Part shown: one piece after another, positions 17,052-29,033 of the stretch | How the letters are laid out: every line of letters starts with the position of its first letter | How positions within the stretch are numbered: the first letter of the stretch is position 1 | DNA from: an uncultured candidate division Zixibacteria bacterium | Lineage (GTDB): Bacteria; Zixibacteria; MSB-5A5; GN15; FEB-12 | DNA length: 64,000 nt | Direction of reading: 5' to 3' | NCBI GenBank assembly: GCA_963735035.1 | Contig: CAVTJJ010000004.1 | Span: 1,120,001 to 1,184,000 of the forward strand | The notes under the pieces: generated by a model | Seen by the model: the letters and a program-made list of their open reading frames with translations, nothing else | Told to the model about the DNA's origin: nothing | Databases searched by the model: none | Translations under genes and position numbers: made by a program

Positions 17052-19295
17052 ATGTTTACGTTTCTGCTGAGAGTGAAGCGCCGTATTCGGCGCCTCTTGA
17101 AGGTGCAAACCGAGGCACGTCAGGCCCAGGCCGTGACGCTTCGGTCGCGTACTTTGCGGTATTTGATGCTGGTACTCGCGGCGGTGACGATTAGCGTCTT
17201 TTATCCCGGTGAAATCTTCTACGACCCGCTCGATATGCCTCGCCAGGGTGAGATTGCCCGCGAGGATGTCACGGCTCCTTTCCCCATAACCATTCTCAAG
17301 AGCGAACAGCAGGTCAGGGAAGAGCGGGAGCAGATTCGGCGCTACACACCGTTCGTGCTGGATCGTGATACCCAGGTGGTGGCTGAAGCCGTCGACCGTC
17401 TCCGTCAGTTTGCTGATCTAGCTTCATCTTTGCGTCGTCATGCGAACGCCTCACGAGTGGGGCAGCGGTCGGATTTTCTCGATTCACTGACCAACGCTTT
17501 CCCCGGCCTCGGCCAGACCGCACTGGTCAAGGCTATCGATACCGACGTCAATTTCAAAGAATTGGCTGGCCGCTTGAGCGCCATATACCGCGAGCAAATA
17601 TATCGGGTCGGCGTCATGGCGGACATCGAGGCGCTCCCCCGCTACGGCAACCCGGCGGTGTCGGTTCGGGAAGGTGATCGCGAAAGCCAGTATGATCGCT
17701 CGCGCATCCTGGATATCAGCCTGGCGAATGCGCGTCTCACGACCGTTTTGAATCGCATAGCGGTCGATTCTGCGCTGGATGTCGACTTCTACTACAACGT
17801 AGGCAAGTGCTTTATTCTCCCCAATCTCACGGCCAATCCGGTGGAGTATGCGCGCCGGGTCGACGAGGCCCTGGGGCATATCTCTCCCGTTCTGAAGGAA
17901 ATCAACGCCGGCGACATAATTGTGTCGGTGCGCCAGAAAGTGACGGCCGAGCAGGAAGAAATTCTCAAGGAAATGGTCCAGATGATGCGACGGGAGGAGG
18001 CCGGTCGTGGCTGGTGGATTCCACTCATGCCGGTACTGGCCCGTTTCATTCTCGTGTTAGCCGCGCTTGCGGCGCTCTATTTGTTCCTGAAATATTTCCG
18101 GCCGGATGTGGCCAAGTCGAACCCCAAACTGCTGGCCATTTTCCTGGTCTTCGGTTTTCAGATATTTCTCGTGTTTCTGCTTGATAAGTTGGGACCGCAT
18201 TCGATCTACATCTATCCCGTCGCAGTGCTACCCGTGATGATTACGATTCTGTTCGACTCGGAAATAGGCATCCTGTCGACCTTCGTTCTGGCTATACTTC
18301 TGGGGATAATGCATCGATTCAGCTTCTCGCTGACTCTGGTAACGGCGGTGGTGGGATATGTCGGCTGCCTGACTTCGAGCAAAGTACGCAAGCGATCCGA
18401 TTTCTATCGCATCATGCTTTCAATCATACTGTCATACATCTTGCTGATTCTGGTGGTTGAGAAGCTGAAGCTCACCCCGAACGACGAGATGATCGTGGAA
18501 ATGGTGTACGGCGTGGTAGTGGGCGCGCTCTCTGTGATACTGGTGACGGGTGTGCTTCCGGTATTTGAATCGCTCTTCGGGATAACCACCGACACAACTC
18601 TGCTGGAACTCTCCGACTTGAATCATCCGCTCTTGCGTCGTCTCTCGATCGAGGCCCCGGGAACCTATCATCATTCGATTTCGGTGGGGAATCTGTCAGA
18701 ATCGGCGGCCGAAGCAGTCGGAGCCAATGCGCTACTGGCGCGGGTGGGCGCATACTACCACGATATCGGCAAAATCGAAGTGCCGGAATATTTCGTGGAA
18801 AATCAGTTCAGCGTACGCTCGAAACACGACGCCCTGACCCCGTCAATGTCGGCCATTATTCTTTCTTCGCACGTCAAGAAAGGCCGCATGCTGGGTGAGG
18901 AAGCGGATATACCCGACGATGTACTGAATTTTATCGAAGAGCACCACGGCACGATCGTGATGGAATATTTCTACAGTCGGGCGCGCGAACACGAAGGCGA
19001 TTCGGTCGACATTAACAAATTCCGGTATCCGGGGCCGAAGCCTCAGACGAGGGAAACCGGTATTGCCATGTTGGCGGACGCGGTCGAAGCAGCCAGTCGA
19101 ACGCTGGACGATCCCAAGCCGGCCCGGATTGACGCCCTCATACAGCGAATCATCAATGCCCGCTTCCAGTCGGGCGAACTCGACGAGTGCCCGCTGACCC
19201 TGCGCGATCTGGCCGGCATTCGAAAAGCCTTCACCCAGGTGTTGATTGCCGCCTTCCATCATCGTGTAAAATATCCCGGCGATCCGAAAGGTTAG
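17052..19295 (+). CDS. 7TM-HD (HDIG) membrane phosphohydrolase, PgpH-like
   Basis: Extracytoplasmic domain, ~7 TM helices, APGTYHHS, YYHDIGK, EHHGT and LADAVEAASR motifs. Conserved phoH-HD-ybeY context. Confidence 0.9.
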   Translation: MFTFLLRVKRRIRRLLKVQTEARQAQAVTLRSRTLRYLMLVLAAVTISVFYPGEIFYDPLDMPRQGEIAREDVTAPFPITILKSEQQVREEREQIRRYTPFVLDRDTQVVAEAVDRLRQFADLASSLRRHANASRVGQRSDFLDSLTNAFPGLGQTALVKAIDTDVNFKELAGRLSAIYREQIYRVGVMADIEALPRYGNPAVSVREGDRESQYDRSRILDISLANARLTTVLNRIAVDSALDVDFYYNVGKCFILPNLTANPVEYARRVDEALGHISPVLKEINAGDIIVSVRQKVTAEQEEILKEMVQMMRREEAGRGWWIPLMPVLARFILVLAALAALYLFLKYFRPDVAKSNPKLLAIFLVFGFQIFLVFLLDKLGPHSIYIYPVAVLPVMITILFDSEIGILSTFVLAILLGIMHRFSFSLTLVTAVVGYVGCLTSSKVRKRSDFYRIMLSIILSYILLILVVEKLKLTPNDEMIVEMVYGVVVGALSVILVTGVLPVFESLFGITTDTTLLELSDLNHPLLRRLSIEAPGTYHHSISVGNLSESAAEAVGANALLARVGAYYHDIGKIEVPEYFVENQFSVRSKHDALTPSMSAIILSSHVKKGRMLGEEADIPDDVLNFIEEHHGTIVMEYFYSRAREHEGDSVDINKFRYPGPKPQTRETGIAMLADAVEAASRTLDDPKPARIDALIQRIINARFQSGELDECPLTLRDLAGIRKAFTQVLIAAFHHRVKYPGDPKG

Positions 19296-19301
19296 ACCTC
19301 T

Positions 19302-19736
19302 ATGGAATTGAAAATCTATAAAGAGATACCGGCCCGACTGCCGTCCCAACAGCTTCAGGAACTTTTTGGCAGAGTAGTTCGCTCCGAAGGGAAAAGTCGC
19401 TGGGCGGCGCACGTGAACCTGATTGTCTGCTCCGACGCCCGTATTGCCAGCCTCAATCAACGGTTTCGCGGGATCGACCGCCCCACCGATGTCCTTTCTT
19501 TCAACCTGGATTCCCCGGAAGAAGCGGGTGACACTTTCGGTGAGATCTATATCGCCTGGCCGTATATTCGTCGTCAGGCGGCCGGACTGGGACGGGGACT
19601 CCATGAAGAATTTCTGCTACTGGTTTGTCACGGTCTTCTGCACCTTTTCGGACACGATCACGACATGCCGGCGCGCGAAGCGGCCATGTTCAAGCGGCAA
19701 GCCCGCTATCTCAAATCCGGCAAGGGAAGGAACTGA
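19302..19736 (+). CDS. ybeY: rRNA maturation RNase YbeY
   Basis: PTDVLSF and HGLLHLFGHDH motifs. Confidence 0.95.
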   Translation: MELKIYKEIPARLPSQQLQELFGRVVRSEGKSRWAAHVNLIVCSDARIASLNQRFRGIDRPTDVLSFNLDSPEEAGDTFGEIYIAWPYIRRQAAGLGRGLHEEFLLLVCHGLLHLFGHDHDMPAREAAMFKRQARYLKSGKGRN

Positions 19737-19742
19737 CGGCTC

Positions 19743-21008
19743 GTGGTATCCCTGCTTTGTCTGATCGTGATTATCTGGTGCTATGTCACCGCCTACATCG
19801 TCTCGGTGTACGCGTCCGCGATCTATATTGATCCTGAAGAAGTGTCGGAGCTGTTTCCCGGCCTCTCGCATAGACGTCGTCAGGCCTTGATGCGGCTCGT
19901 TGGCGACCCCCGCGCCTTTGTTCAGATAGCCACGATATATCGATACTTCGCCCTGGTGGTAGTGGTGGGGGCGACGATTCTATTGACCGAACAGACTGTA
20001 GGCAAATACTCCGGATATTACCAATGGTTCACTCTGCTGATGGTCTGGGTTCTCTTTGTGCTGGTGGCAGAATTTCTGCCCCGACGAGCTTCACGCGGGC
20101 CGGTCAATCGAAGAATGGTCCGCTGGCTATGGTTGATCAGTCTTCTGCGTCTCTTGCTGCACCCGTTTGTAGCAGTCTATCGCAGAGGGTTGCTCCGGAC
20201 AAATGGCGATCGTCAGGTCACCGAGGACGAGAAGGAAGAGATTGTCGAACGCGCCATCGAGACTCTGGCCGAGCAGGCTGGAATCGGCGAGACCATTGTC
20301 GAAGAAGATGAGAAGGAAATGATCGGCCAGATATTCCGGCTCGACCAGACCACGGTGAGGGAGATAATGTCGCCTCGAATCGATCTGGTTGGGATCGACA
20401 AGACCTCACGTTTTGCCGACATCCAGGACCTGGTGCGTCGGGACGGCCATTCGCGCTATCCGGTCTACGAGGGTTCGATCGACAAGATCATCGGCATTTT
20501 GTACGTCAAGGACCTTTTCAATAATCTGCCCAAACCGGGCGAAGAATTTGTGATTACCGATTATCTGCGGCGACCGTTTTTTGTGCCGGAAACCAAAGTC
20601 ATCGGAGATCTCCTGCGCGAATTTCGCGCGCGCAAGCTTCATGTAGCAGTGGCGGTTGATGACTACGGTGGCGTAGCAGGACTCGTGAGTCTCGAAGATA
20701 TTCTTGAAGAAATCGTCGGTGAGATTCAAGACGAGCACGACAGCGAGTCCGAGGAATTTAGTCGCCAACCCGACGGTAGCCTGGTAGTCGACGCCGGCAT
20801 GCGGCTGGAAAAGCTCCAGGAGGTTCTCGGAACCGAGTTTGAGCAGGACGAGCATGCGACGGTCGGAGGTCTCATCTACGATCTGGTGGGCTCGGTACCT
20901 GAGCCTGACCAGGAAGTCTGGTGGCATCGCATTAGATTCCATATACTTAAGCTCGACGGCCAGAGGATTCTCTTGGTTCGCGTCAGCTACCCATCAAAGC
21001 CTGTCTGA
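19743..21008 (+). CDS. CNNM/hemolysin-family CBS-CorC membrane protein
   Basis: DUF21-type TM region, CBS pair (VREIMSPR, GHSRYPV, VDDYGG.AGLV.LEDILEEIVGEI) and CorC domain. Confidence 0.9.
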   Translation: MVSLLCLIVIIWCYVTAYIVSVYASAIYIDPEEVSELFPGLSHRRRQALMRLVGDPRAFVQIATIYRYFALVVVVGATILLTEQTVGKYSGYYQWFTLLMVWVLFVLVAEFLPRRASRGPVNRRMVRWLWLISLLRLLLHPFVAVYRRGLLRTNGDRQVTEDEKEEIVERAIETLAEQAGIGETIVEEDEKEMIGQIFRLDQTTVREIMSPRIDLVGIDKTSRFADIQDLVRRDGHSRYPVYEGSIDKIIGILYVKDLFNNLPKPGEEFVITDYLRRPFFVPETKVIGDLLREFRARKLHVAVAVDDYGGVAGLVSLEDILEEIVGEIQDEHDSESEEFSRQPDGSLVVDAGMRLEKLQEVLGTEFEQDEHATVGGLIYDLVGSVPEPDQEVWWHRIRFHILKLDGQRILLVRVSYPSKPV

Positions 21009-21049
21009 TCTCACCCCCGGCGCAGCTTGTGCGCCTCGTAAAATACTGC

Positions 21050-21078
21050 TTGACACAGTGATAGGGATATCCTATCAT
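21050..21078 (+). promoter_or_regulatory. Near-consensus sigma70 promoter overlapped by a palindromic operator
   Basis: TTGACA-N17-TATCAT. Inverted repeat TGATAGG-N5-CCTATCA at 21059-21077. Confidence 0.75.
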
Positions 21079-21193
21079 TCCAATGGCAGAATATGCGTTT
21101 AAATCGACTCGCACTTAGTTCCCGTTTACGTAGTTTTGAAATGTAGGAAGGTATATTCGGGACGGAGTGTGAGTGGATCATAGGAGACGTTGT

Positions 21194-21466
21194 ATGGGCA
21201 GTAAGGTATTGTTAGTTGTGGCTGCAATGTTGGTGCTCCTAATCGTTGGTCTGACGTCCGGTCCCGCTTTCTCCGGGGAACATCCATGGGATTCTGATCG
21301 CACAGGTGGCGGGTCAGGTACCACGACAGGTGTTACTCATGACACTGTAACCGTAGTTGGGACAGACACTATGACTATCAACGGTAGCAGCACACCGACC
21401 ACAGTAGTGGCCCCCGGCTGGACCGTGATTGTTCAGGCCGTGTGGTCTGCAATGATGACCAGGTAG
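21194..21466 (+). CDS. Small secreted protein/propeptide (90 aa, HPW motif)
   Basis: SD TAGGAG. Sec signal peptide ending AFS, then GEHPWD, a Gly/Thr linker and a hydrophobic C-terminal segment. Confidence 0.75.
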   Translation: MGSKVLLVVAAMLVLLIVGLTSGPAFSGEHPWDSDRTGGGSGTTTGVTHDTVTVVGTDTMTINGSSTPTTVVAPGWTVIVQAVWSAMMTR

Positions 21467-21565
21467 CTTCCCGACTATGGCGGGTCAATGTGGAGAGCAA
21501 AAGTCAGTTGCCGGCCCGCGACGAAAGGACGACTGCTAAACAAGAACCTTTAGATCTTAAACGAC

Positions 21566-24505
21566 ATGGGCACAACCTCACTGAACTATGTCTTGGATCA
21601 CCGTCTATTGCTGATTGAGGAGCTTCTGCTCCAGCGGAAATATGACGAGGCCAGGAAGGGCCTGGCTAATCTTCGAGAATCTGATTTCGAAGCTGACGAT
21701 ACACAACACGGTCTGTACCTGTCATTGTCTGCCGATATCGCATTCCTCGACGGTGAATATGAGAATTCTCTTGAACTAGGTTTGAAAGCGGCCCGGCTGC
21801 TGGCCGGTTCGCCGCACCATCGCCAATACGGGCGCACCCTCCATGTATTATCAAAGACTCACTGGGCGGAGGGCAATTTCAAGAAGGCTGAAGAAAAGGC
21901 TTACGACGCTATGGCGTCGTATCGTCGGGCCAGCGACAGCGCCGGTCAGGTCAGTGTTCTGAACGAACTGGCCCACATTGCTTTCATGCGCTCCGATTTT
22001 AAGGCCGCCACCGCTTTTCTGGATGAAGCGGTGACTCTGGCCGAGAATCATTCCGCCAAAGCAGCGATGCTCGCCGGCAACGCCGGTCGTATTCGCACGC
22101 TCCAGGGTGAGTGGGCTCGCGCCGAGCAGGATATCAAATCTTCTCTGCAATATTATACTTCGACCGGCGATGAGACCTCTGCGGCCAGCGCACTGCTCTC
22201 GCTGGGTTATTTGCATCTGCGAAAGAGGGAATTCGTCTTCGCCGACGGGTGTTTTGAGAAAGCCCGTGAAATCATTGAACGCCTCGGTCTGAAGCGTCCG
22301 AGAGTATATCATCGCAAATATGCCGGTGAACTTGCTTTCGAAAAAGGCGATTTCTACCGGGCCAAGGCGCTTCTGAGCGAGGCCTACCGTGAGGCCACGC
22401 AACTTGCGCCGGAGTCGGCTCTGGTAACTCAGGCCGGCAGGCGGCTTGCCGAAGTGGAACTGGCACTGGACAATGTTGATTCGGCATCGAAATTCGCTCA
22501 CAAGACCCTCGAATTGGCTTTGAAGATTGGTGAAACCGCTGAAATTGGGCAGGCACGACGGGTTATCGCCGCCGTGTTCGCAGCGCGCTCGGGTTGGGAT
22601 GAGGCGTTTCGAAGTGGTCGCGAGGCTGTTGAAGTGGCTCGCGCAGCCGGTGACCCGATTGATCTGGCTCGTACCCTGCTGGCGTTGGCCGATATAATGG
22701 TACAAGCCGGCTCGGATGATTATGATCAGGTGAGTGGTCTCTATGACGAGGCGGCCAGGATGTTCCGTCGCTTTGACTTGCCCTTCTGGTTCGCCGAAGC
22801 AGGTTATCAGGCCGGTACGTGGGCCTGTCGCCATGGACGACTTTCCCAGGGATTCAAGCTTCTGAGTCGATCGGAAAAGGTCTTCTCGGAACTCGCTGAA
22901 ACCAGCAAAGTGCGCCGGGTGGGGCAGTACCTGACAGCGATCGCTGATCAGGCCGTGGCTCTTTCCGTGTCCGACGACAACCAGTTCAAATTGTTCGGCA
23001 AATTGATCAATCCGGCCGAACTTACCGATCTGAATTCCGGCGCGATGGATGATCTAGTCGACATATTGCGTCGGCGCACCGGAGCGGACCGCGTAGTGGT
23101 CGTCAGTCCTGACCTTGACGCTACCTCTCTGGTGTCTTCCGAACCCATGACGCCTCAGAAAATGACATTATTCATCGAAGGTTTCCGTCGATTGTTGGGT
23201 CAGGAGATTTCCACAATCAAGCCTACGCTTATGCTGGACTGCCGTCGCGATCCCTACGTAGCGGAGTTGTTTGCGGATTCGCTAGATGTCATCGCCAGCG
23301 TACTGGTGGTACCGTTCAAGATGGGCGACGGCTGTGTCAGCTTCATCTATCTCGATCGTGTCGCTGCTGACAATCGCCTGAATCCTTTCGATCAGGACGC
23401 TCTCAATTTCGCGGTAGGATTTTCGGATGTGGTGGCCTTCAAGTCGGCCGAGTTGCAGAGGCGGAAACTCCTCGAGGACAACCGTCGCCTCAAGGCTCAG
23501 ATAATGATGGAAGCGGCGTTTCCGAACATACTTACGCGAAACCACGAGATGCTTCAGATTCTCGATCAGGTCCGGCAGGTTATTGACTCCAATATCTCGA
23601 TAAGCATCCAGGGACCTACCGGAAGCGGCAAGGATTTGCTGGCCCGGGCGATTCATTACAACTCAAAACGGCGCGACAAACGCTTTATCTCCGTAAACTG
23701 CGCCGCTCTGCCGGAAACTCTTTTGGAATCAGAACTCTTTGGATATCGCAGGGGCGCCTTCACCGGAGCGGATCGTGACAAGCCGGGGCTTTTTGAGGAA
23801 GCCGACGGCGGCACGTTCTTCCTTGACGAAATCGCCGATATGCCTTTGAGTGTCCAGGCCAAGATTCTTCGGGTGTTGGAAGAGAAGGAACTGGTTCGTC
23901 TGGGCGAAAGCACACCGCGCAAGGTGGACGTTCGGATTGTCTCGGCTACCAATAAAGACCTCAAGCTGGAGATGGAAGAACGACGCTTCCGCCAGGACTT
24001 GTATTTCCGTCTGGCGGCGCTGACATACCGTTTGCCGGCGCTATCCGACCGTCGCGAGGATATCCCGTTGCTGGTCGAACATTTTGTTCAGGGGAGTGGC
24101 AAGAGGATTTCTCCTGAGGCCATGCAGTACCTGGTGGCGTATGATTGGCCGGGCAACGTCCGCGAACTGGACAACGAAATCAAGAAACTGATTCTGCTCG
24201 CCGGCTCGTCTGAAGTCATCCCATCCGACATTCTCTCGACCAAGATCGTTGCGGAGAACCGTTCGAAATCGCTCAACAGGCCGGGGAGCGACATTTCGTC
24301 GGGCTATGCGGTAGAGTTTGATGCCCAGCATTCGCTTTACGATTTTCTCGCGCAGCATGAGCGGCAGTTCATAGTCAGGGCTCTCAAGGAGCGCAACGGG
24401 GTCAAGAAACACGCTGCGGCCCTCTTGAATATCCCCGAATCGTCACTCCGACTCAAGATCAAGGAATATAATATCGATCTGGATCGCCTCGACGCGATTA
24501 ACTAA
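21566..24505 (+). CDS. TPR-repeat + GAF-like + sigma54-interaction AAA+ + Fis-HTH transcriptional activator
   Basis: N-terminal ~460 aa of TPR-like helical repeats, Walker A GPTGSGKD, ESELFG..RGAFTGA, FLDEI, FRQDLYFRL, WPGNVREL, and C-terminal AA.LL.I HTH. Confidence 0.93.
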   Translation: MGTTSLNYVLDHRLLLIEELLLQRKYDEARKGLANLRESDFEADDTQHGLYLSLSADIAFLDGEYENSLELGLKAARLLAGSPHHRQYGRTLHVLSKTHWAEGNFKKAEEKAYDAMASYRRASDSAGQVSVLNELAHIAFMRSDFKAATAFLDEAVTLAENHSAKAAMLAGNAGRIRTLQGEWARAEQDIKSSLQYYTSTGDETSAASALLSLGYLHLRKREFVFADGCFEKAREIIERLGLKRPRVYHRKYAGELAFEKGDFYRAKALLSEAYREATQLAPESALVTQAGRRLAEVELALDNVDSASKFAHKTLELALKIGETAEIGQARRVIAAVFAARSGWDEAFRSGREAVEVARAAGDPIDLARTLLALADIMVQAGSDDYDQVSGLYDEAARMFRRFDLPFWFAEAGYQAGTWACRHGRLSQGFKLLSRSEKVFSELAETSKVRRVGQYLTAIADQAVALSVSDDNQFKLFGKLINPAELTDLNSGAMDDLVDILRRRTGADRVVVVSPDLDATSLVSSEPMTPQKMTLFIEGFRRLLGQEISTIKPTLMLDCRRDPYVAELFADSLDVIASVLVVPFKMGDGCVSFIYLDRVAADNRLNPFDQDALNFAVGFSDVVAFKSAELQRRKLLEDNRRLKAQIMMEAAFPNILTRNHEMLQILDQVRQVIDSNISISIQGPTGSGKDLLARAIHYNSKRRDKRFISVNCAALPETLLESELFGYRRGAFTGADRDKPGLFEEADGGTFFLDEIADMPLSVQAKILRVLEEKELVRLGESTPRKVDVRIVSATNKDLKLEMEERRFRQDLYFRLAALTYRLPALSDRREDIPLLVEHFVQGSGKRISPEAMQYLVAYDWPGNVRELDNEIKKLILLAGSSEVIPSDILSTKIVAENRSKSLNRPGSDISSGYAVEFDAQHSLYDFLAQHERQFIVRALKERNGVKKHAAALLNIPESSLRLKIKEYNIDLDRLDAIN

Positions 24506-24525
24506 GATCGATTCGAAAATCGATT

Positions 24526-24553
24526 GCGCCCCGTCCGACGGGGCGCTTTTTTT
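24526..24553 (+). terminator. Intrinsic terminator
   Basis: GCGCCCCGT...ACGGGGCGC stem followed by T7. Confidence 0.85.
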
Positions 24554-24557
24554 GTCT

Positions 24558-25355
24558 ATGTCAGTTCTCCAGTCGTTCTGTCACTATGCTGCCGACCCCT
24601 GGTTCAATATGGCTTTCGACGAGGCCATGCTGGAGGAAGTCGATCAATGTCCCGAGAAGATTATTATTCGTCTGTATACTTGGGAGCCGGGTGCGATCAC
24701 GATCGGTGTGAACCAGCAGGTAGAACGAGCCGTGCGACTTGAGAATCTCGGTGATACCCCCTTGCTCCGGCGGATCACCGGCGGACGCGCTGTCTACCAC
24801 GATGTTTCCGAACTGACTTACGCCATAGCCCTGAATTTGGAGAATCCCGATCTCGCTGGTTGGCGCCCTTCGGTGAGTAGCGTGTACCTTCGCCTGGCCG
24901 AAGGACTGCGTCTGTTTCTCGACAGGTTAGGTCGACCGACGCAAATTGTGCGACGTGGTGTCGGCGAAAATCCCCAGCGGGCTGATTACATTACGGCACC
25001 ATGTTTTGAATCTGCTGCCCGCTACGAACTGACCTTTGCCGGAGCGAAACTGCTGGCTTCAGCTCAGCGGCAAGCCGGCTCGGCAATCTTGCAGCACGGC
25101 TCAATCAAGCTCCACGGGGCGGTGGTTCATCCGGCTCTGCGGGGAGGTGTTACGATTTCTGAACATGCCCATCAAGCGATTGAGCAAGAACGCCTTGAAG
25201 AGTTTTCCACACAGTTCATCGAGACTTTGGGTGGGTGGTTTGGAGTGGAAATGTTTGATCGCACAACAGCCACACCGTCCCTTCACCGCCTGGGTGCTCG
25301 TCTGGCAATGATTCGTTCTGATCCCTTGGGCAAGCGCATTCCTGTTGAACGCTGA
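24558..25355 (+). CDS. Lipoate-protein ligase/octanoyltransferase family (LplA/LipM-like)
   Basis: NMAFDEA, RLYTW, RRITGGRAVYH, KLLASAQ and LQHGS motifs. Confidence 0.85.
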   Translation: MSVLQSFCHYAADPWFNMAFDEAMLEEVDQCPEKIIIRLYTWEPGAITIGVNQQVERAVRLENLGDTPLLRRITGGRAVYHDVSELTYAIALNLENPDLAGWRPSVSSVYLRLAEGLRLFLDRLGRPTQIVRRGVGENPQRADYITAPCFESAARYELTFAGAKLLASAQRQAGSAILQHGSIKLHGAVVHPALRGGVTISEHAHQAIEQERLEEFSTQFIETLGGWFGVEMFDRTTATPSLHRLGARLAMIRSDPLGKRIPVER

Positions 25356-25424
25356 GCCCCTAATGTCAGTCTATAACACAGATACCGTAAAGGTCGGAAT
25401 GTCCGGCCCTGCGCAAGAATTCGC

Positions 25425-25454
25425 TTGACTTGCCAGTTCGGGAGAGCCTATTTT
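25425..25454 (+). promoter_or_regulatory. Possible sigma70-type promoter of the TBDR operon
   Basis: TTGACT-N18-TATTTT, ~225 nt upstream of the ATG. Confidence 0.4.
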
Positions 25455-25679: not shown

Positions 25680-28600
25680 ATGGCTGGGATTGGCAAAAGG
25701 CTGCTCGCATGTATTTTGTTGGCAACGATGGCATTGCTGCTCTTGTCAACTTACTCTTTTGCTGGCACCACCGGACAGATCAAAGGACGGGTCGTCGACG
25801 AGTCCGGCAAACCTGTGATCGGAGCTTCGGTGCTGATCGTAGGAACCACTCAGGGCGCCATGACCGATGTGGACGGGAATTTCCAGGTCCTGCGTGTAGA
25901 TCCGGGAACATATGTTCTGCGCATATCGAGCGTGGAATATACCACCGTCGAGGTCACGAATGTCATCGTCAAGATTGATGAGACTTTCGAAGTCAATCAG
26001 AAGATGGCGGCCAAGGGTGCCACCGACATTAACAAGACCATCACGGTGGAAGGCACCCAGGACATTCTGGACAGATTCGTTACTGACAGCCGTGTGGTAA
26101 TAAGCCAGGAAGCGATCAGGCAGCGTCCGGTGCTTACCGTTGACAACTTGCTGGAGCAGGTGGCGGGTGTCCGTACCACGGCCGAAGGCGAAGTGTTCGT
26201 GCGTGGCGGTCGCGCCGGTGAAGTGGCGTACATCGTTGACGGTGTCCCGATCGGCGATCCGCTCGGCAGCGGTCGCGGTCAGATCGGCGCCTCGCTCTCA
26301 CTGGTGTCAGGTTCGATTGCCGAAATTCAGGTCATCAAGGACGGTTTCGATCCTGAATATGGCAATGCCCTTTCAGGTATTGTCAATATTCGCAGTTTCA
26401 CCGGCGACAAGAACAACACGCGAATGGAACTGCAGTGGATCACCGACGACTTCGGCAACCGGAGTCTCAACAAGTATTCTCGCAATTCCGATTACTTTCA
26501 GGCGACTCTTTCCGGTCCGGACCCGCTGATAAGTGACAAGCTTCTGCCGGCTATGGGACTGAACTTCCTCAAGGATCAGGAGTTTACCTACTTCCTCTAT
26601 GCCAGCGTGGACAAGAACGACGGCATCTACAAGATGCAGGATTACAATACTCCGACGACTGTGCGGAAGTGGCCTACTTTCGGCATTCTCGGCTTTGATG
26701 TGCCGGAACGCCTCAAGAACAATTACCACGTCGAGTCCAATTTTAAGTTCCGTCCGCGTCAAAACCTGAAGTTCGTACTTTCATATAAGAAGTACGTTAA
26801 CAAGATAACGCTTTTCTCCCGCAGCGAATGGGCCTATCGATATTCGAATTCTACGGCTCCAATTTACAACCAGGACTGGTATACGCTGTCTCTCGAAACC
26901 ACGCATTCGGTTTCGCGAAACATGAACTATGAGCTGATCTTCTCAATCTACAACGAAAAGAACAGCGAAAAACCTTCCGACCCCAATCATCCGGGCACGA
27001 CCCTTGATCCGTACGATATGTATACCGATGCCGGTTGGGAAACCTTTCAGGATAACAACGGCAACGGTGTTTACGATCCCCCGGAACCGATCATCAATCT
27101 GTTTGGTGACACCGCCAACTACGGCACCGGTTTCAACGGTCCGGCCTATACTTTCGGAGAGAACAACAGTTACACGAACCAGCAGGGCGGAACGCCCATC
27201 CGGAGCAATTTCCGTTTCAATAATAACGGTGTCATAGACAACCTTGAAGGTGAGCCGTTTATCGACCTCAACGGAAACGGTGTCTGGGATCGGGGCGACT
27301 ATTTGAACGATCGCAACGGCAATGGCATTCTCGACAGCGACCGTCGTCCGACCGTCCAAACGCCCAGTGCCGAACCGTTCGTTGACGGTGACTCGATCAT
27401 CGGCGAACCGTTTGTCGATCTAAACTACAATGGTGTGTACGAACCGCGCATAGATGTGTTCTTTTTCGACGCTGATCCTGCCAGAAATCAGGATCTAAAT
27501 TACAACGGCATATACGACGGCCCCAATTCTCCCTGGACCCCGGGCGTGCCTTTCCTGGATCGTGACGGCGACGGATTGTACGACTACCCTAACAATGTCT
27601 ACGATCCGGGTGAGCCGTTCACCGACGTTAACGGCAATGGCAAGTATGACTACGGCGGCTCGAGTACTTTTCTGGAGCCGGGGACTTATGCTTCCGGTTT
27701 TGTCTGGTCGGAGCAGACCGTTCGGCGAATTCGCGGCGAAGTAAAACTGACGCGCCAGATGAATCGCCACGAGGTCAAGGCCGGTTTCTTCTTGCAACGA
27801 GAGCAGTTGTATCAGGGAGAGATTACCAACCCATATTTGCAGTACAATGGTCGTCCGGACTATAGTAACCCCTACTCGACTCGCGGCCTTTTCCGCGATT
27901 TCTATCGGTACGATCCGATCTCCGGAGCCGTCTATGCTCGTGATAAGATCGAATACGGTTCGATGGTGGCGTCGCTCGGTCTGCGCTGGGATTTCTTCCT
28001 GCAGGATACGAAGGATCTGGCGCGGGCGCTCAAGAGTGATGACCGCGGCGGTAAGATTCTGGGTGATCGGCAGCAGTTTGCTCCAAGAATTGGATTCTCT
28101 TATCCGATTTCCGACAAGGCCAAAGTGTACTTCAACTATGGTCACTTCTTCCAGTTGGCCGGTCTATACACGATGTACAAGCGCAATACTATCAGTGCCG
28201 ACCAGAACAACGTTCTGGGTAATCCCAACTTGAATTATCAGAAGACGATTCAGTATTCGTTCGGCATTAAGTACGCTATGAATGAGAGCTATACTATTGA
28301 CGCCCAGGGGTACTTCAAGGACGAGTTTGACAAGATCAACGCCGGTAACATTTACGAAGGCGAGCTGGTGCGGCAGCAGTATCTCAACAAGGACTATGGA
28401 CGCAGCCGCGGATTTGAAGTCACGCTGGAGCGCTCCGGCGGCGGCCTGGTCAACGGCAACATCAGTTACACCTACGCTTTCGCGTTCGGCAAGGATTCGA
28501 AGTCGGCCGAGCAGTTCAACCGGGACCTGGAGTCGCGTGAGGCTTTGACCGAGTCTCCCATGAACGAGGACATCCGCCACACCGTCAAGGCTGCGGTTAC

Positions 28601-29033
28601 TATCGACATGCCGTCAACGGTTAAGCCGAGACTCTTTGGTGTCCCCATTCTAAACGGCTGGAGTCTGGCTATTGAGGGTCTGGTTGAGAGTGGCGCGCCA
28701 TATACTCCGTCCAGCACTTTCCCCGGTCTGGCTGGTTCGACTACCTCACCGCAAAAGAATTCGATGCGTTTCCCGATGACCGCGGCGTTCGATATCCGTT
28801 TTACGAAAGACTTCGGACTGGCGGGGCTCGACTGGAAAGGCATCCTCTGGGTTGAGAACCTGTTCAATCGGCGCAACGTGGTGGCCCTGGCGGGCGATCC
28901 GAGTTCCACCGGACGAGCTGACACCAATCAGAACATTAACGGAGTCGTGTATGGCGGCTCAGAGTTCGACAAGAATCCCTATAACTGGGGTTATGGTCGC
29001 CAGATCCGGCTCGGTATTCAAGTGAGCATATAG
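25680..29033 (+). CDS. TonB-dependent receptor with carboxypeptidase-regulatory-like N-domain and DxNxNG repeat insert
   Basis: Signal peptide, GQIKGRVVD..G.PVIGASV, plug FVRGGR..EVAYIVDG, GFDPEYGNALSG, PRIGFSYPI and C-terminal RQIRLGIQVSI. Confidence 0.88.
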   Translation: MAGIGKRLLACILLATMALLLLSTYSFAGTTGQIKGRVVDESGKPVIGASVLIVGTTQGAMTDVDGNFQVLRVDPGTYVLRISSVEYTTVEVTNVIVKIDETFEVNQKMAAKGATDINKTITVEGTQDILDRFVTDSRVVISQEAIRQRPVLTVDNLLEQVAGVRTTAEGEVFVRGGRAGEVAYIVDGVPIGDPLGSGRGQIGASLSLVSGSIAEIQVIKDGFDPEYGNALSGIVNIRSFTGDKNNTRMELQWITDDFGNRSLNKYSRNSDYFQATLSGPDPLISDKLLPAMGLNFLKDQEFTYFLYASVDKNDGIYKMQDYNTPTTVRKWPTFGILGFDVPERLKNNYHVESNFKFRPRQNLKFVLSYKKYVNKITLFSRSEWAYRYSNSTAPIYNQDWYTLSLETTHSVSRNMNYELIFSIYNEKNSEKPSDPNHPGTTLDPYDMYTDAGWETFQDNNGNGVYDPPEPIINLFGDTANYGTGFNGPAYTFGENNSYTNQQGGTPIRSNFRFNNNGVIDNLEGEPFIDLNGNGVWDRGDYLNDRNGNGILDSDRRPTVQTPSAEPFVDGDSIIGEPFVDLNYNGVYEPRIDVFFFDADPARNQDLNYNGIYDGPNSPWTPGVPFLDRDGDGLYDYPNNVYDPGEPFTDVNGNGKYDYGGSSTFLEPGTYASGFVWSEQTVRRIRGEVKLTRQMNRHEVKAGFFLQREQLYQGEITNPYLQYNGRPDYSNPYSTRGLFRDFYRYDPISGAVYARDKIEYGSMVASLGLRWDFFLQDTKDLARALKSDDRGGKILGDRQQFAPRIGFSYPISDKAKVYFNYGHFFQLAGLYTMYKRNTISADQNNVLGNPNLNYQKTIQYSFGIKYAMNESYTIDAQGYFKDEFDKINAGNIYEGELVRQQYLNKDYGRSRGFEVTLERSGGGLVNGNISYTYAFAFGKDSKSAEQFNRDLESREALTESPMNEDIRHTVKAAVTIDMPSTVKPRLFGVPILNGWSLAIEGLVESGAPYTPSSTFPGLAGSTTSPQKNSMRFPMTAAFDIRFTKDFGLAGLDWKGILWVENLFNRRNVVALAGDPSSTGRADTNQNINGVVYGGSEFDKNPYNWGYGRQIRLGIQVSI

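Follow-up and report, generated by a model that had tools for sequence, protein, structure and literature searches.

How might a sigma-54 activator be controlled when its sensor is a long superhelix of tetratricopeptide repeats (TPR) and its gene directly follows one for a small protein with the look of an export substrate? The question is raised by a two-gene locus in an uncultured bacterium of the candidate division Zixibacteria. The locus lies in a stretch of 64,000 nucleotides (nt), called the window below (G000:C4:1120001-1184000, where G000 is the genome and C4 the contig), of a 3.6-Mb genome that is 97% complete; positions given without a contig are those of the window. On the plus strand, an open reading frame (ORF) of 90 amino acids (21194-21466, counted from its ATG) precedes the gene for a 979-residue activator (21566-24505). 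A sequence-only reading of this DNA had taken the pair for a candidate peptide-signaling or envelope-sensing system in which a peptide bearing an HPW motif may be bound by the TPR region, by analogy with the RRNPP quorum-sensing receptors of Firmicutes. Here we report that the pair is a real, ancient, and co-duplicating module of Zixibacteria, and we propose that its two genes form one evolutionary unit, a cognate sensor pair. The best explanation overall joins this pairing to recognition of the small protein's motif by the TPR sensor, autoregulation of the operon, and a gene for a giant surface protein as output, and we assign it a probability of roughly one-half.

A gene pair inherited and duplicated together

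Full-length orthologs of the activator were present in all 41 relatives from the same order, at 43 to 76% identity. At each of the 37 loci fetched from relatives, an ORF of 79 to 156 amino acids lay on the same strand directly 5' of the activator gene, and all 37 of these ORFs had a basic start, a long hydrophobic run, and a Pro-aromatic-acid motif (P-W-[DGEN] in 36, P-F-D in 1). Public contigs were also scanned with an alignment of the activator's N-terminal 640 residues. This returned 105 relatives, of which 80 were kept, and 70 of the 80 had the upstream DNA (at least 449 nt) that made them testable. The small ORF was found upstream in all 70, every one of them from Zixibacteria; 65 were recognized by pattern and 5 by inspection, one of the latter having been missed by the start rule and the other four carrying EHAWD, EHPWV, or AHSWD (twice). 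The two sets overlap, as some loci come from identical genomes. Whether orthologous activators keep the upstream peptide gene had been set beforehand as one of three refuting tests of the sequence-only reading, and the gene was kept at 37 of 37 and at 70 of 70 loci. A second such test, on conservation of the motif, was likewise survived (see below).

Of 285 genomes examined in the phylum, 249 had a match to the N-terminal region of the activator and 166 to a profile of the small protein, and nearly all of the matched genomes had a single match to the small-protein profile. The two matches were adjacent and on the same strand in all 42 rows that were compared by eye. Four families of the phylum had neither gene (0 of 32 genomes for each), and families with only distant homologs of the activator were missed by the small-protein profile, the ORF being present there on inspection. 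The genes that flank the pair vary among loci, and the pair therefore moves as a unit. Chance was assessed within this genome by using 21,135 variants of ORFs that start with M and span 60 to 220 amino acids, among which 1,244 had a signal-peptide-like start. Four of the 21,135 combined such a start with x-P-W-[DG] at residues 19 to 75, and two of those four lie directly 5' of the genome's only two TPR-type sigma-54 activators.

A paralogous pair is encoded on the minus strand at G000:C4 ~314,490-317,120, where an ORF of 120 amino acids overlaps the start of the gene for a 757-residue activator. The 120-residue paralog has a signal-peptide-like start, the sequence DGDHPWGDDE, a hydrophobic segment, and a basic tail, and its activator has TPR_12, TPR_MalT, the sigma-54 domain, and HTH_8 without a GAF domain. 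Aligned over 279 residues, the two activators share 28% identity in their TPR regions (E 9e-25). We refer to the window's pair as family A and to the paralogous pair as family B. An ortholog of the 757-residue activator is present in 39 of the 41 relatives, and at all 30 family B loci fetched, a signal-peptide ORF lay 0 to 22 nt upstream with the motif H-P-W-G-G-[DE] (25 loci) or H-[TN]-W-G-G-E (5 loci), the His being constant. A divergent set came from ten genomes of ten more distant families of the class. In it, 24 loci matched, and four were dropped (one without an N-terminal match on re-alignment, one without upstream DNA, and two short proteins that were not full length). A signal-peptide ORF bearing [HDY]-P-W or H-T-W lay directly upstream in 18 of the 20 that were left; one of the other two had tandem ORFs (H-E-W and H-G-W), and the last had a signal-peptide ORF without the motif. 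The most pairs in any one genome of this set was five. The pairing thus recurs among paralogs in 30 of 30 and 18 of 20 loci, so the history of the small gene and its TPR activator is one of joint duplication and divergence. The TPR, AAA+, and helix-turn-helix (HTH) domains of the activator and the signal peptide and H/x-P-W motif of the small protein are common to the pairs, with the GAF domain optional. The motif is near-invariant inside each family, and the split between families A and B is fully confounded with phylogeny.

A profile built from 36 of the small proteins was run against 1.84 billion cluster representatives and matched 321 of them at E<=1e-3 (157 of these at E<=1e-10), each 79 to 139 amino acids long. 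Statistics on the motif and the start were taken from the best 150 of the 321. The motif Pro was present in all 150, Trp in 149, Asp(+2) in 144, Asp(+4) in 131, and Glu(-2) in 137; the residue before Pro was His in 83, Asn in 23, Asp in 20, and Gly in 14. Of the HPW motif put forward from the sequence, it is therefore a P-W-D core that proved near-invariant, and the His did not, occurring in 83 of 150 and being constant only in the paralogous family. The Pro falls at residue 29 to 34 in 140 of the 150, and in the window the motif reads E-H-P-W-D-S-D (residues 29 to 35; 21278-21298, plus strand). It follows a signal-peptide-like start (21194-21274) with a basic N terminus, a long hydrophobic run, and a P-A-F-S-G junction. 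Among the representatives, the N terminus is net positive in 144 of 150 and the uncharged run has a median length of 23 residues; a Pro at -7 and small residues come ahead of the motif, the small residues being compatible with a signal-peptidase I site. These features suggest that the small protein is exported and cleaved. Behind the motif comes an acidic stretch rich in Gly, Ser, Thr, Asn, and Asp (net negative in 83 of 84, median -8.5), then an aromatic, moderately hydrophobic segment (residues 71 to 90 in the window by alignment; 21404-21463) and a variable tail.

A Cys lies within the hydrophobic start, 11 to 13 residues ahead of the motif, in 123 of the 150 representatives. The residue that precedes it is often V, L, or F, which makes the setting only partly lipobox-like; a lipobox with an invariant Cys was not found, and the small protein of the window has no Cys at all. 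A hairpin membrane protein whose cytoplasmic tail would be bound by the TPR region was considered and rejected, as the second hydrophobic segment is in most members too weak to span a membrane: the median best 17-residue Kyte-Doolittle value is 1.0 in family A, where 7 of 84 reach 1.6, and 1.18 in family B (4 of 25). The charge of the tail, which is mixed (34 positive, 15 neutral, and 26 negative), also counts against such a hairpin. No Pfam or NCBIfam family was found for the small protein, and those homologs that carry a source name are each a "hypothetical protein" of Zixibacteria. A search of a protein atlas with 21194-21463 gave a best score of 0.84, which is under the tool's evidence level. 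The atlas neighbors, at 0.83 to 0.84, were unnamed clusters of small proteins, commonest in Candidatus Eiseniibacteriota and Zixibacteria. The module may extend past Zixibacteria.

Every sequence feature tested places the activator among the enhancer-binding proteins. Pfam detected TPR_12 (six stretches), TPR_MalT, Sigma54_activat (residues 656 to 819), AAA_lid_14, and HTH_8 (residues 928 to 968) and found no receiver domain. The AlphaFold2 model of residues 1 to 640 (predicted local distance difference test [pLDDT] 90.3; predicted template modeling score 0.83) has helices from residue 12 to 468 followed by an alpha/beta domain. These helices, about 22 in number, form the TPR superhelix to which the six TPR_12 stretches and TPR_MalT also point (21599-22969). 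The alpha/beta domain modeled alone (residues 470 to 655, pLDDT 83) matched the solved GAF domains of CodY, DosS, PDE5A, and phytochrome at E 9e-5 to 1e-3. The corresponding Pfam match scored 19.3 bits, under the curated cut-off of 22.4; on the strength of the domain models, residues 483 to 640 (23012-23485) are a GAF fold. The AAA+ sigma-54 interaction domain (23531-24022; PF00158, E 2.5e-67) contains GAFTGA at residues 730 to 735 (23753-23770, read directly in the alignment), and a Fis-type HTH_8 DNA-binding domain follows at 24347-24469 (PF02954, E 2.6e-8). Pfam and AlphaFold2 thus agree with the earlier description of an input region of TPR-like repeats and a GAF-like domain without a receiver, and the AAA+ domain with its GAFTGA and the HTH are intact as had been described. 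Sigma-54 itself is present in the genome (rpoN DNA-binding domain at G000:C4:989986-990459, E 3.2e-58). In databases, the activator goes under generic names, among them "sigma 54-interacting transcriptional regulator" and "transcriptional regulator with GAF, ATPase, and Fis domain."

Transcription signals at the locus are consistent with a single unit. A sigma-70-type promoter-like site, TTGACA-17-TATCAT, lies at 21050-21078 on the plus strand (11 of 12 matches). The promoter scan found 4 such sites against 2.2 expected, and a lone match is weak for that reason; in 65 aligned homologous upstream regions, CTTGACA and a TAnnnT -10 element are kept at an equal position. The small ORF has an AGGAG ribosome-binding site (21182-21186), conserved as GGAGG in the same alignment, and an alternative GTG start at 21173 would lengthen its product to 97 amino acids. 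A Shine-Dalgarno (SD)-like site precedes only 11 of 64 activator genes. A terminator-like hairpin with a T run (24526-24553; a 9-bp stem with 8 G-C pairs) follows the activator. This hairpin (24526-24546) and a shorter variant inside it are the only plus-strand terminator-like sites in 20800-24800, and the 99-nt spacer between the two genes has none. Co-transcription of the small ORF and the activator is predicted from their adjacency, the one promoter-like site, and the lack of an intervening terminator-like site. The scans place the promoter, the signal-peptide ORF, the activator, and the terminator where the sequence-only reading had seen them, and it was likewise right that no terminator separates the genes.

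The module is bordered on its 5' side by a corC-like gene (CBS/CorC_HlyC by Pfam) that ends at 21008 and on its 3' side by a lipoate-ligase-like gene that starts at 24552. The corC-like gene closes a run of housekeeping genes (17052-21008) that includes those for a 747-residue membrane protein whose C-terminal part is HD-type-like by eye and a 144-residue protein with the motif H-x-x-x-H-x-x-G-H-D-H, YbeY-like by eye. The 5' neighbor of the module is not the same in other genomes. Family B operons start at TTGACA-17-TATCTT, followed by a leader of about 110 nt before the small ORF. By eye, an inverted repeat in the 5' part of this leader varies between genomes with changes that compensate each other; the leader also has a C-rich CCTCAC...TCCGCCAT motif and a near-invariant AACCAAGGAGTGT ribosome-binding region. 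Consensus folding of the leader returned no pairs, the stem-loop there being one seen by eye alone, and four loci, including the family B leader, had no match in Rfam.

Operator-like palindromes and a candidate output

Two palindromes of the same geometry are placed around the family A promoter. The first, GCGCA-N5-TGCGC (21020-21034), starts 30 nt before the -35 hexamer, and the second, TGGCA-N5-TGCGT (21084-21098), lies just past the -10 element, 64 nt from the first. The order CGCA-N5-TGCG, CTTGACA, TAnnnT, GGCA-N5-TGCG, GGAGG, start codon is conserved across the 65 upstream regions, which are non-identical. Palindrome 1 (scored as GCA-N5-TGC) is present in 55 of the 65, and in 39 of these it starts 30 nt ahead of TTGACA; palindrome 2 is present in 60, and in 46 of these its start is 34 nt past TTGACA. 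When the genome was scanned with a matrix made from the operon promoters of related genomes, the operon's two sites were the top-scoring pair within 150 nt (29.5, against 25.5 for the next). We infer that the activator's own HTH binds both operon palindromes. Site 2 was also considered as a sigma-54 promoter and rejected, since its GG-to-GC spacing is 8 rather than 10 and site 1 has the same dyad without a GG.

The genome-wide scans with this matrix were otherwise mostly noise. A cluster of three palindromes, weak to strong, lies beside a recombinase gene at G000:C3:5138-5250. By eye, G000:C3:3000-5300 holds a large serine-recombinase-like ORF that runs into a tRNA-like stretch; this is probably the border of a mobile element, with the palindrome matches there due to chance. 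Another site, at C6:110453, is 53 nt from another TTGACA, and the top single site genome-wide, C4:1010514, is within an ORF. Inside the window, 25403-25425 (GCGCAAGAATTCGC) combines one good and one imperfect operator half-site and abuts a TTGACT hexamer that lies about 260 nt 5' of a TonB-dependent receptor gene (25680-29033). A matrix match of score 16.0 at 24939 is inside the lipoate-ligase-like gene. No sigma-54-type site was found near either of these two palindromes.

One palindrome outside the window stood in a setting that suggests an output. At G000:C4:1240936, a site of score 15.7 lies 297 nt upstream of a sigma-54-type site, TGGCGTGATTCTTGCA, which is itself about 260 nt before the ATG of an ORF of 3,111 codons (C4:1241493-1250828), about 100 kb from the module. 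The 3,111-residue protein has PKD and immunoglobulin (Ig)-like repeats and a type IX sorting domain (TIGR04183, 42.6 bits with a cut-off of 23; PF18962, 36.8 bits with a cut-off of 27). In the other two genomes of the genus, DNA similarity starts exactly at the same 16-nt promoter of the giant gene, and each has one palindrome, 337 and 172 nt upstream, amid unalignable sequence. The leader of the giant gene, some 200 to 260 nt, is conserved within the genus.

The comparison was extended to 30 loci that comprise orthologs and paralogs of the giant gene. In 14 of them, all from the window's own family (f1), the promoter is TGGC[CG][CT]G.TTCTTGCA or a close variant. In 9 of these 14 genomes, a palindrome with a score of 11 or more lies 170 to 445 nt before this promoter, and a tenth locus has one of score ~11.0 at 166 nt, just under threshold. 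When the sequences were shuffled 500 times, 0.21 of 14 had such a palindrome on average and never more than 3, and the remainder of these loci had 4 palindrome matches in 49,874 nt. On these patterns, the giant type IX surface protein is a candidate target of the activator and a good lead.

Heat-shock genes were considered as another possible target, following a lead from a paper on Bacteroidota (PMC12316311). Upstream of grpE, which is just 5' of dnaK, there is one weak sigma-54-like match (8 of 12) and no palindrome. The groES gene (G000:C4:847,800-847,920) is preceded by TTGACA and an inverted repeat, TTAGCACTC-N9-GAGTGCTAA, which we take to be CIRCE-like, and it has no sigma-54-type site or palindrome upstream. 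Heat-shock genes were rejected as the target, and their control looks HrcA-type rather than sigma-54-type.

Motif recognition, topology, and rival explanations

In the mechanism that we favor, the sigma-70-type promoter would read the operon, and the strong ribosome-binding site would yield much of the small, exported, acidic protein alongside little of the cytoplasmic activator. The N-terminal TPR superhelix and the GAF domain would gate the activator's ATPase. The TPR groove would bind the Trp-acidic E-x-P-W-D-x-D motif of the small protein, and the availability of that motif in the cytoplasm would set the activity of the activator. The Fis-type HTH would then bind CGCA-N5-TGCG palindromes in two places: at the two sites that flank the operon's own promoter, giving autoregulation, and 170 to 445 nt before the sigma-54-type promoter of the giant gene, giving the 3,111-residue, type IX-secreted, Ig-like repeat protein as output.

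Two lines of evidence bear on binding. In Foldseek, the best matches of the sensor were TPR superhelices solved with bound peptides or partner proteins, the nearest folds being TSK with the histone H3.1 tail, LGN/Pins with Inscuteable, NuMA, and Frmpd, OGT, and APPBP2 with a degron. The TPR region was also co-folded with the small protein by using the alignment of the activator's N-terminal 640 residues and the full small-protein alignment. The interaction prediction score from aligned errors (ipSAE) was 0.48, 0.46, and 0.35 (median 0.46), and three controls scored 0.00; at least 23% of contacts agreed between runs, and the pLDDT of the partner was at least 34. The tool's verdict was "weak support." In its calibration, 116 of 157 solved complexes passed the mark, as did 2 of 215 mismatched pairs, and the range up to ipSAE 0.60 held 18 of the 157 solved complexes and both of the mismatches that passed. 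The AlphaFold-Multimer check that had been proposed for a motif peptide was thus run in a related form, with the whole small protein, and what came of it is a separation from the controls (0.46 versus 0.00) at the level of weak support. That the TPR sensor directly recognizes the P-W-D motif is, in our judgment, an evenly balanced proposition.

Recognition would also require that the motif reach the sensor, and three routes were weighed. Re-entry of a processed fragment is a tentative option that we hold somewhat unlikely. A search for the Opp-type binding protein (SBP_bac_5, PF00496) found none in this genome, which is 97% complete, and found it in 8 of the 41 relatives, against 41 of 41 for the pair itself; Opp-dependent import is unlikely. 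The genome has four genes for OPT-family oligopeptide transporters and one PTR2 gene, and an import route other than Opp is possible. Capture of the precursor ahead of export is a further option, and a rather unlikely one. Here the small protein would be a sentinel export substrate that normally leaves through Sec at once; were export saturated, with the 3,111-residue type IX cargo, a candidate target of the activator itself, as one possible cause, the precursor would linger in the cytoplasm. The TPR groove would then capture the Trp-acidic motif beside the uncleaved signal peptide and reset the sigma-54 activator. Such a scheme would amount to a transcriptional feedback on export load made of a decoy substrate and an enhancer-binding protein, with paralogous pairs watching different cargoes or routes. 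Any other route seems very improbable.

Several observations weigh against the favored mechanism. An ipSAE of 0.46 is in a range that is more often wrong than right unless the interaction was likely beforehand, and the fold of the partner was uncertain in the co-fold, with no interface returned. The motif lies behind a signal-peptide-like start and next to an acidic stretch and should therefore be found outside the cytoplasm, with the TPR region inside it. Another protein could bind the palindromes in place of the activator, whose part there we infer, and family B promoters have no obvious palindrome equivalent by eye. Among the giant-gene promoters, 5 of 14 have no palindrome at threshold, and in family f4 the sigma-54-like site is another one, with no palindrome alongside it. 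Since the matrix came from the operon promoters of related genomes and the kin compared are not independent, the giant gene is rated a lead and not a finding.

It is possible, if on balance doubtful, that the two proteins are partners that never bind each other. The small protein would have its role in the envelope or periplasm, where it might serve the giant type IX cargo or the export of that cargo, and it would simply be expressed together with the activator that governs the process. What the TPR and GAF domains sense would then be another protein or a small molecule. The topological problem would disappear. GAF is a classic small-molecule sensor, and the complex score is weak; the acidic stretch (83 of 84), the aromatic segment, and the Cys in 123 of 150 small proteins would also fit an envelope role. 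However, co-duplication, with two to five pairs per genome and including a paralog without GAF, is predicted by specific recognition and not by mere co-expression; the two activator-adjacent ORFs of this kind in the genome sit at its only two TPR activators; and the co-fold controls scored 0.00.

A different role for the small ORF would need no ligand. SecM, MifM, and VemP are translational secretion-monitoring arrest peptides in which the motif is near the stop codon, a fixed distance away from a structure over the start of the downstream gene, and that gene encodes an export factor. If the small ORF were a monitoring substrate of this kind, export-dependent stalling would control translation of the activator. 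A co-oriented signal-peptide ORF directly upstream, an aromatic, Trp-containing C-terminal segment, the scarcity of SD-like sites before activator genes (11 of 64), and the abutting or overlapping ORFs of family B (gap of 0 to 22 nt) would all suit this account. We nevertheless consider it quite improbable: the best-conserved element is at the mature N terminus and not by the stop codon, the tail from the C-terminal segment to the stop varies from 0 to 46 residues, the spacer before the activator can be anything from about 24 to 178 nt, the activator start showed no conserved hairpin, and the downstream gene encodes a transcription activator and no export component. More improbable still is adjacency without specific function, or a small ORF that is no real gene, to which the low complexity of the small protein and its lack of a known family might point. 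An open frame and a protein-level motif have been kept while the activators are only 43 to 76% identical, homologs were matched in 321 cluster representatives (157 at E<=1e-10), a strong, conserved ribosome-binding site precedes the ORF, the pairing repeats in paralogs, and the genome-wide control speaks against chance.

Comparison with known systems

Enhancer-binding proteins are usually switched by phosphorylation, by small molecules, or by a cytoplasmic partner. If the favored reading is true, a TPR sensor with a co-inherited, exported small protein would be a further class of input for sigma-54 control, and the module would be a case of Gram-positive-style peptide signaling in a diderm or else of feedback coupled to export. 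For the phylum, neither of the two has been described, nor, within the searches made, has either been for sigma-54 activators. Full-text searches of papers other than subscription-only ones found no description of an enhancer-binding protein with a TPR sensor or of its pairing with a small exported protein, which agrees with the sequence-only reading, where the combination had not been recognized as described. The pair occurs almost throughout a large uncultured phylum, and its paralogous sets would serve as natural specificity variants. With a candidate DNA site and a candidate target promoter, the module could be rebuilt in a laboratory host without culturing Zixibacteria, and the autoregulatory operators and the giant type IX output would be new leads that can be tested.

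Among classical enhancer-binding proteins, NtrC binds dyads with a 6+5+6 layout and acts as a repressor at sigma-70 promoters overlapped by these sites. The palindromes described here are also 6+5+6 dyads placed around a sigma-70-type -35/-10 promoter, and their half-site, CGCA/TGCG, differs from that of NtrC. Another enhancer-binding protein, PspF, is under the control of PspA, a partner that acts in trans and binds the AAA+ domain of PspF. A partner protein acting in trans is the shared element with the module; PspA is cytoplasmic or membrane-peripheral, and its target is AAA+ and not TPR.

The domain order of NifA, NorR, and FhlA is the same as that of the activator here, with GAF followed by an AAA+ domain with GAFTGA and then HTH_8. 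In enhancer-binding proteins of this type, such as NorR (PMC2941729), the N-terminal domain is reported to gate the ATPase. Unlike these proteins, the activator has a TPR superhelix of about 460 residues before the GAF domain, its paralog has TPR only, and both are co-inherited with a small exported protein.

Two systems outside this family share features with the proposed recognition step. In Shigella, the type III TPR chaperone IpgC, once freed of its secreted substrates, reportedly co-activates transcription with MxiE (PMC3299695, PMC10701871). A cytoplasmic TPR protein that binds export substrates is what capture before export would require, and IpgC-MxiE is a precedent in logic only. IpgC is a separate chaperone of 3.5 repeats that works with an AraC-type factor and with type III secretion instead of Sec. 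The TPRs of kinesin light chain are reported to bind short Trp-acidic and Tyr-acidic motifs (PMC6214655), and the likeness to E-x-P-W-D-x-D, a single aromatic residue flanked by acids, is one of motif chemistry only. Kinesin light chain belongs to a eukaryotic cytoplasmic system and was not among the 50 best Foldseek matches of the sensor.

The closest parallel in layout is with the RRNPP systems (Rap-Phr, NprR-NprX, PlcR-PapR, and AimR-AimP) of Firmicutes and mobile elements, and it is as such an analogy that the RRNPP-like reading is partly supported. Membership in that group is not supported, given the output that differs, the Opp-type protein that was not found, and the lack of receptor homology: no RRNPP receptor family was found by Pfam, and none was among the 50 best of at least 500 Foldseek matches. 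In both cases, a signal-peptide gene sits beside the gene of a cytoplasmic TPR-type regulator that controls transcription, and several paralogous pairs with differing motif flanks may occur in one genome; the adjacent gene for a putative exported propeptide was present at 37 of 37 and 70 of 70 loci. The conserved motif opens the mature part of the small protein here and does not lie at its end, and the small protein, at 80 to 140 amino acids, is larger than a propeptide and has a second conserved segment. In contrast to RRNPP receptors, the regulator here has an AAA+ sigma-54 activator as its output module and ends in a Fis-type HTH, and the bacterium that carries it, from the FCB group, is a diderm.

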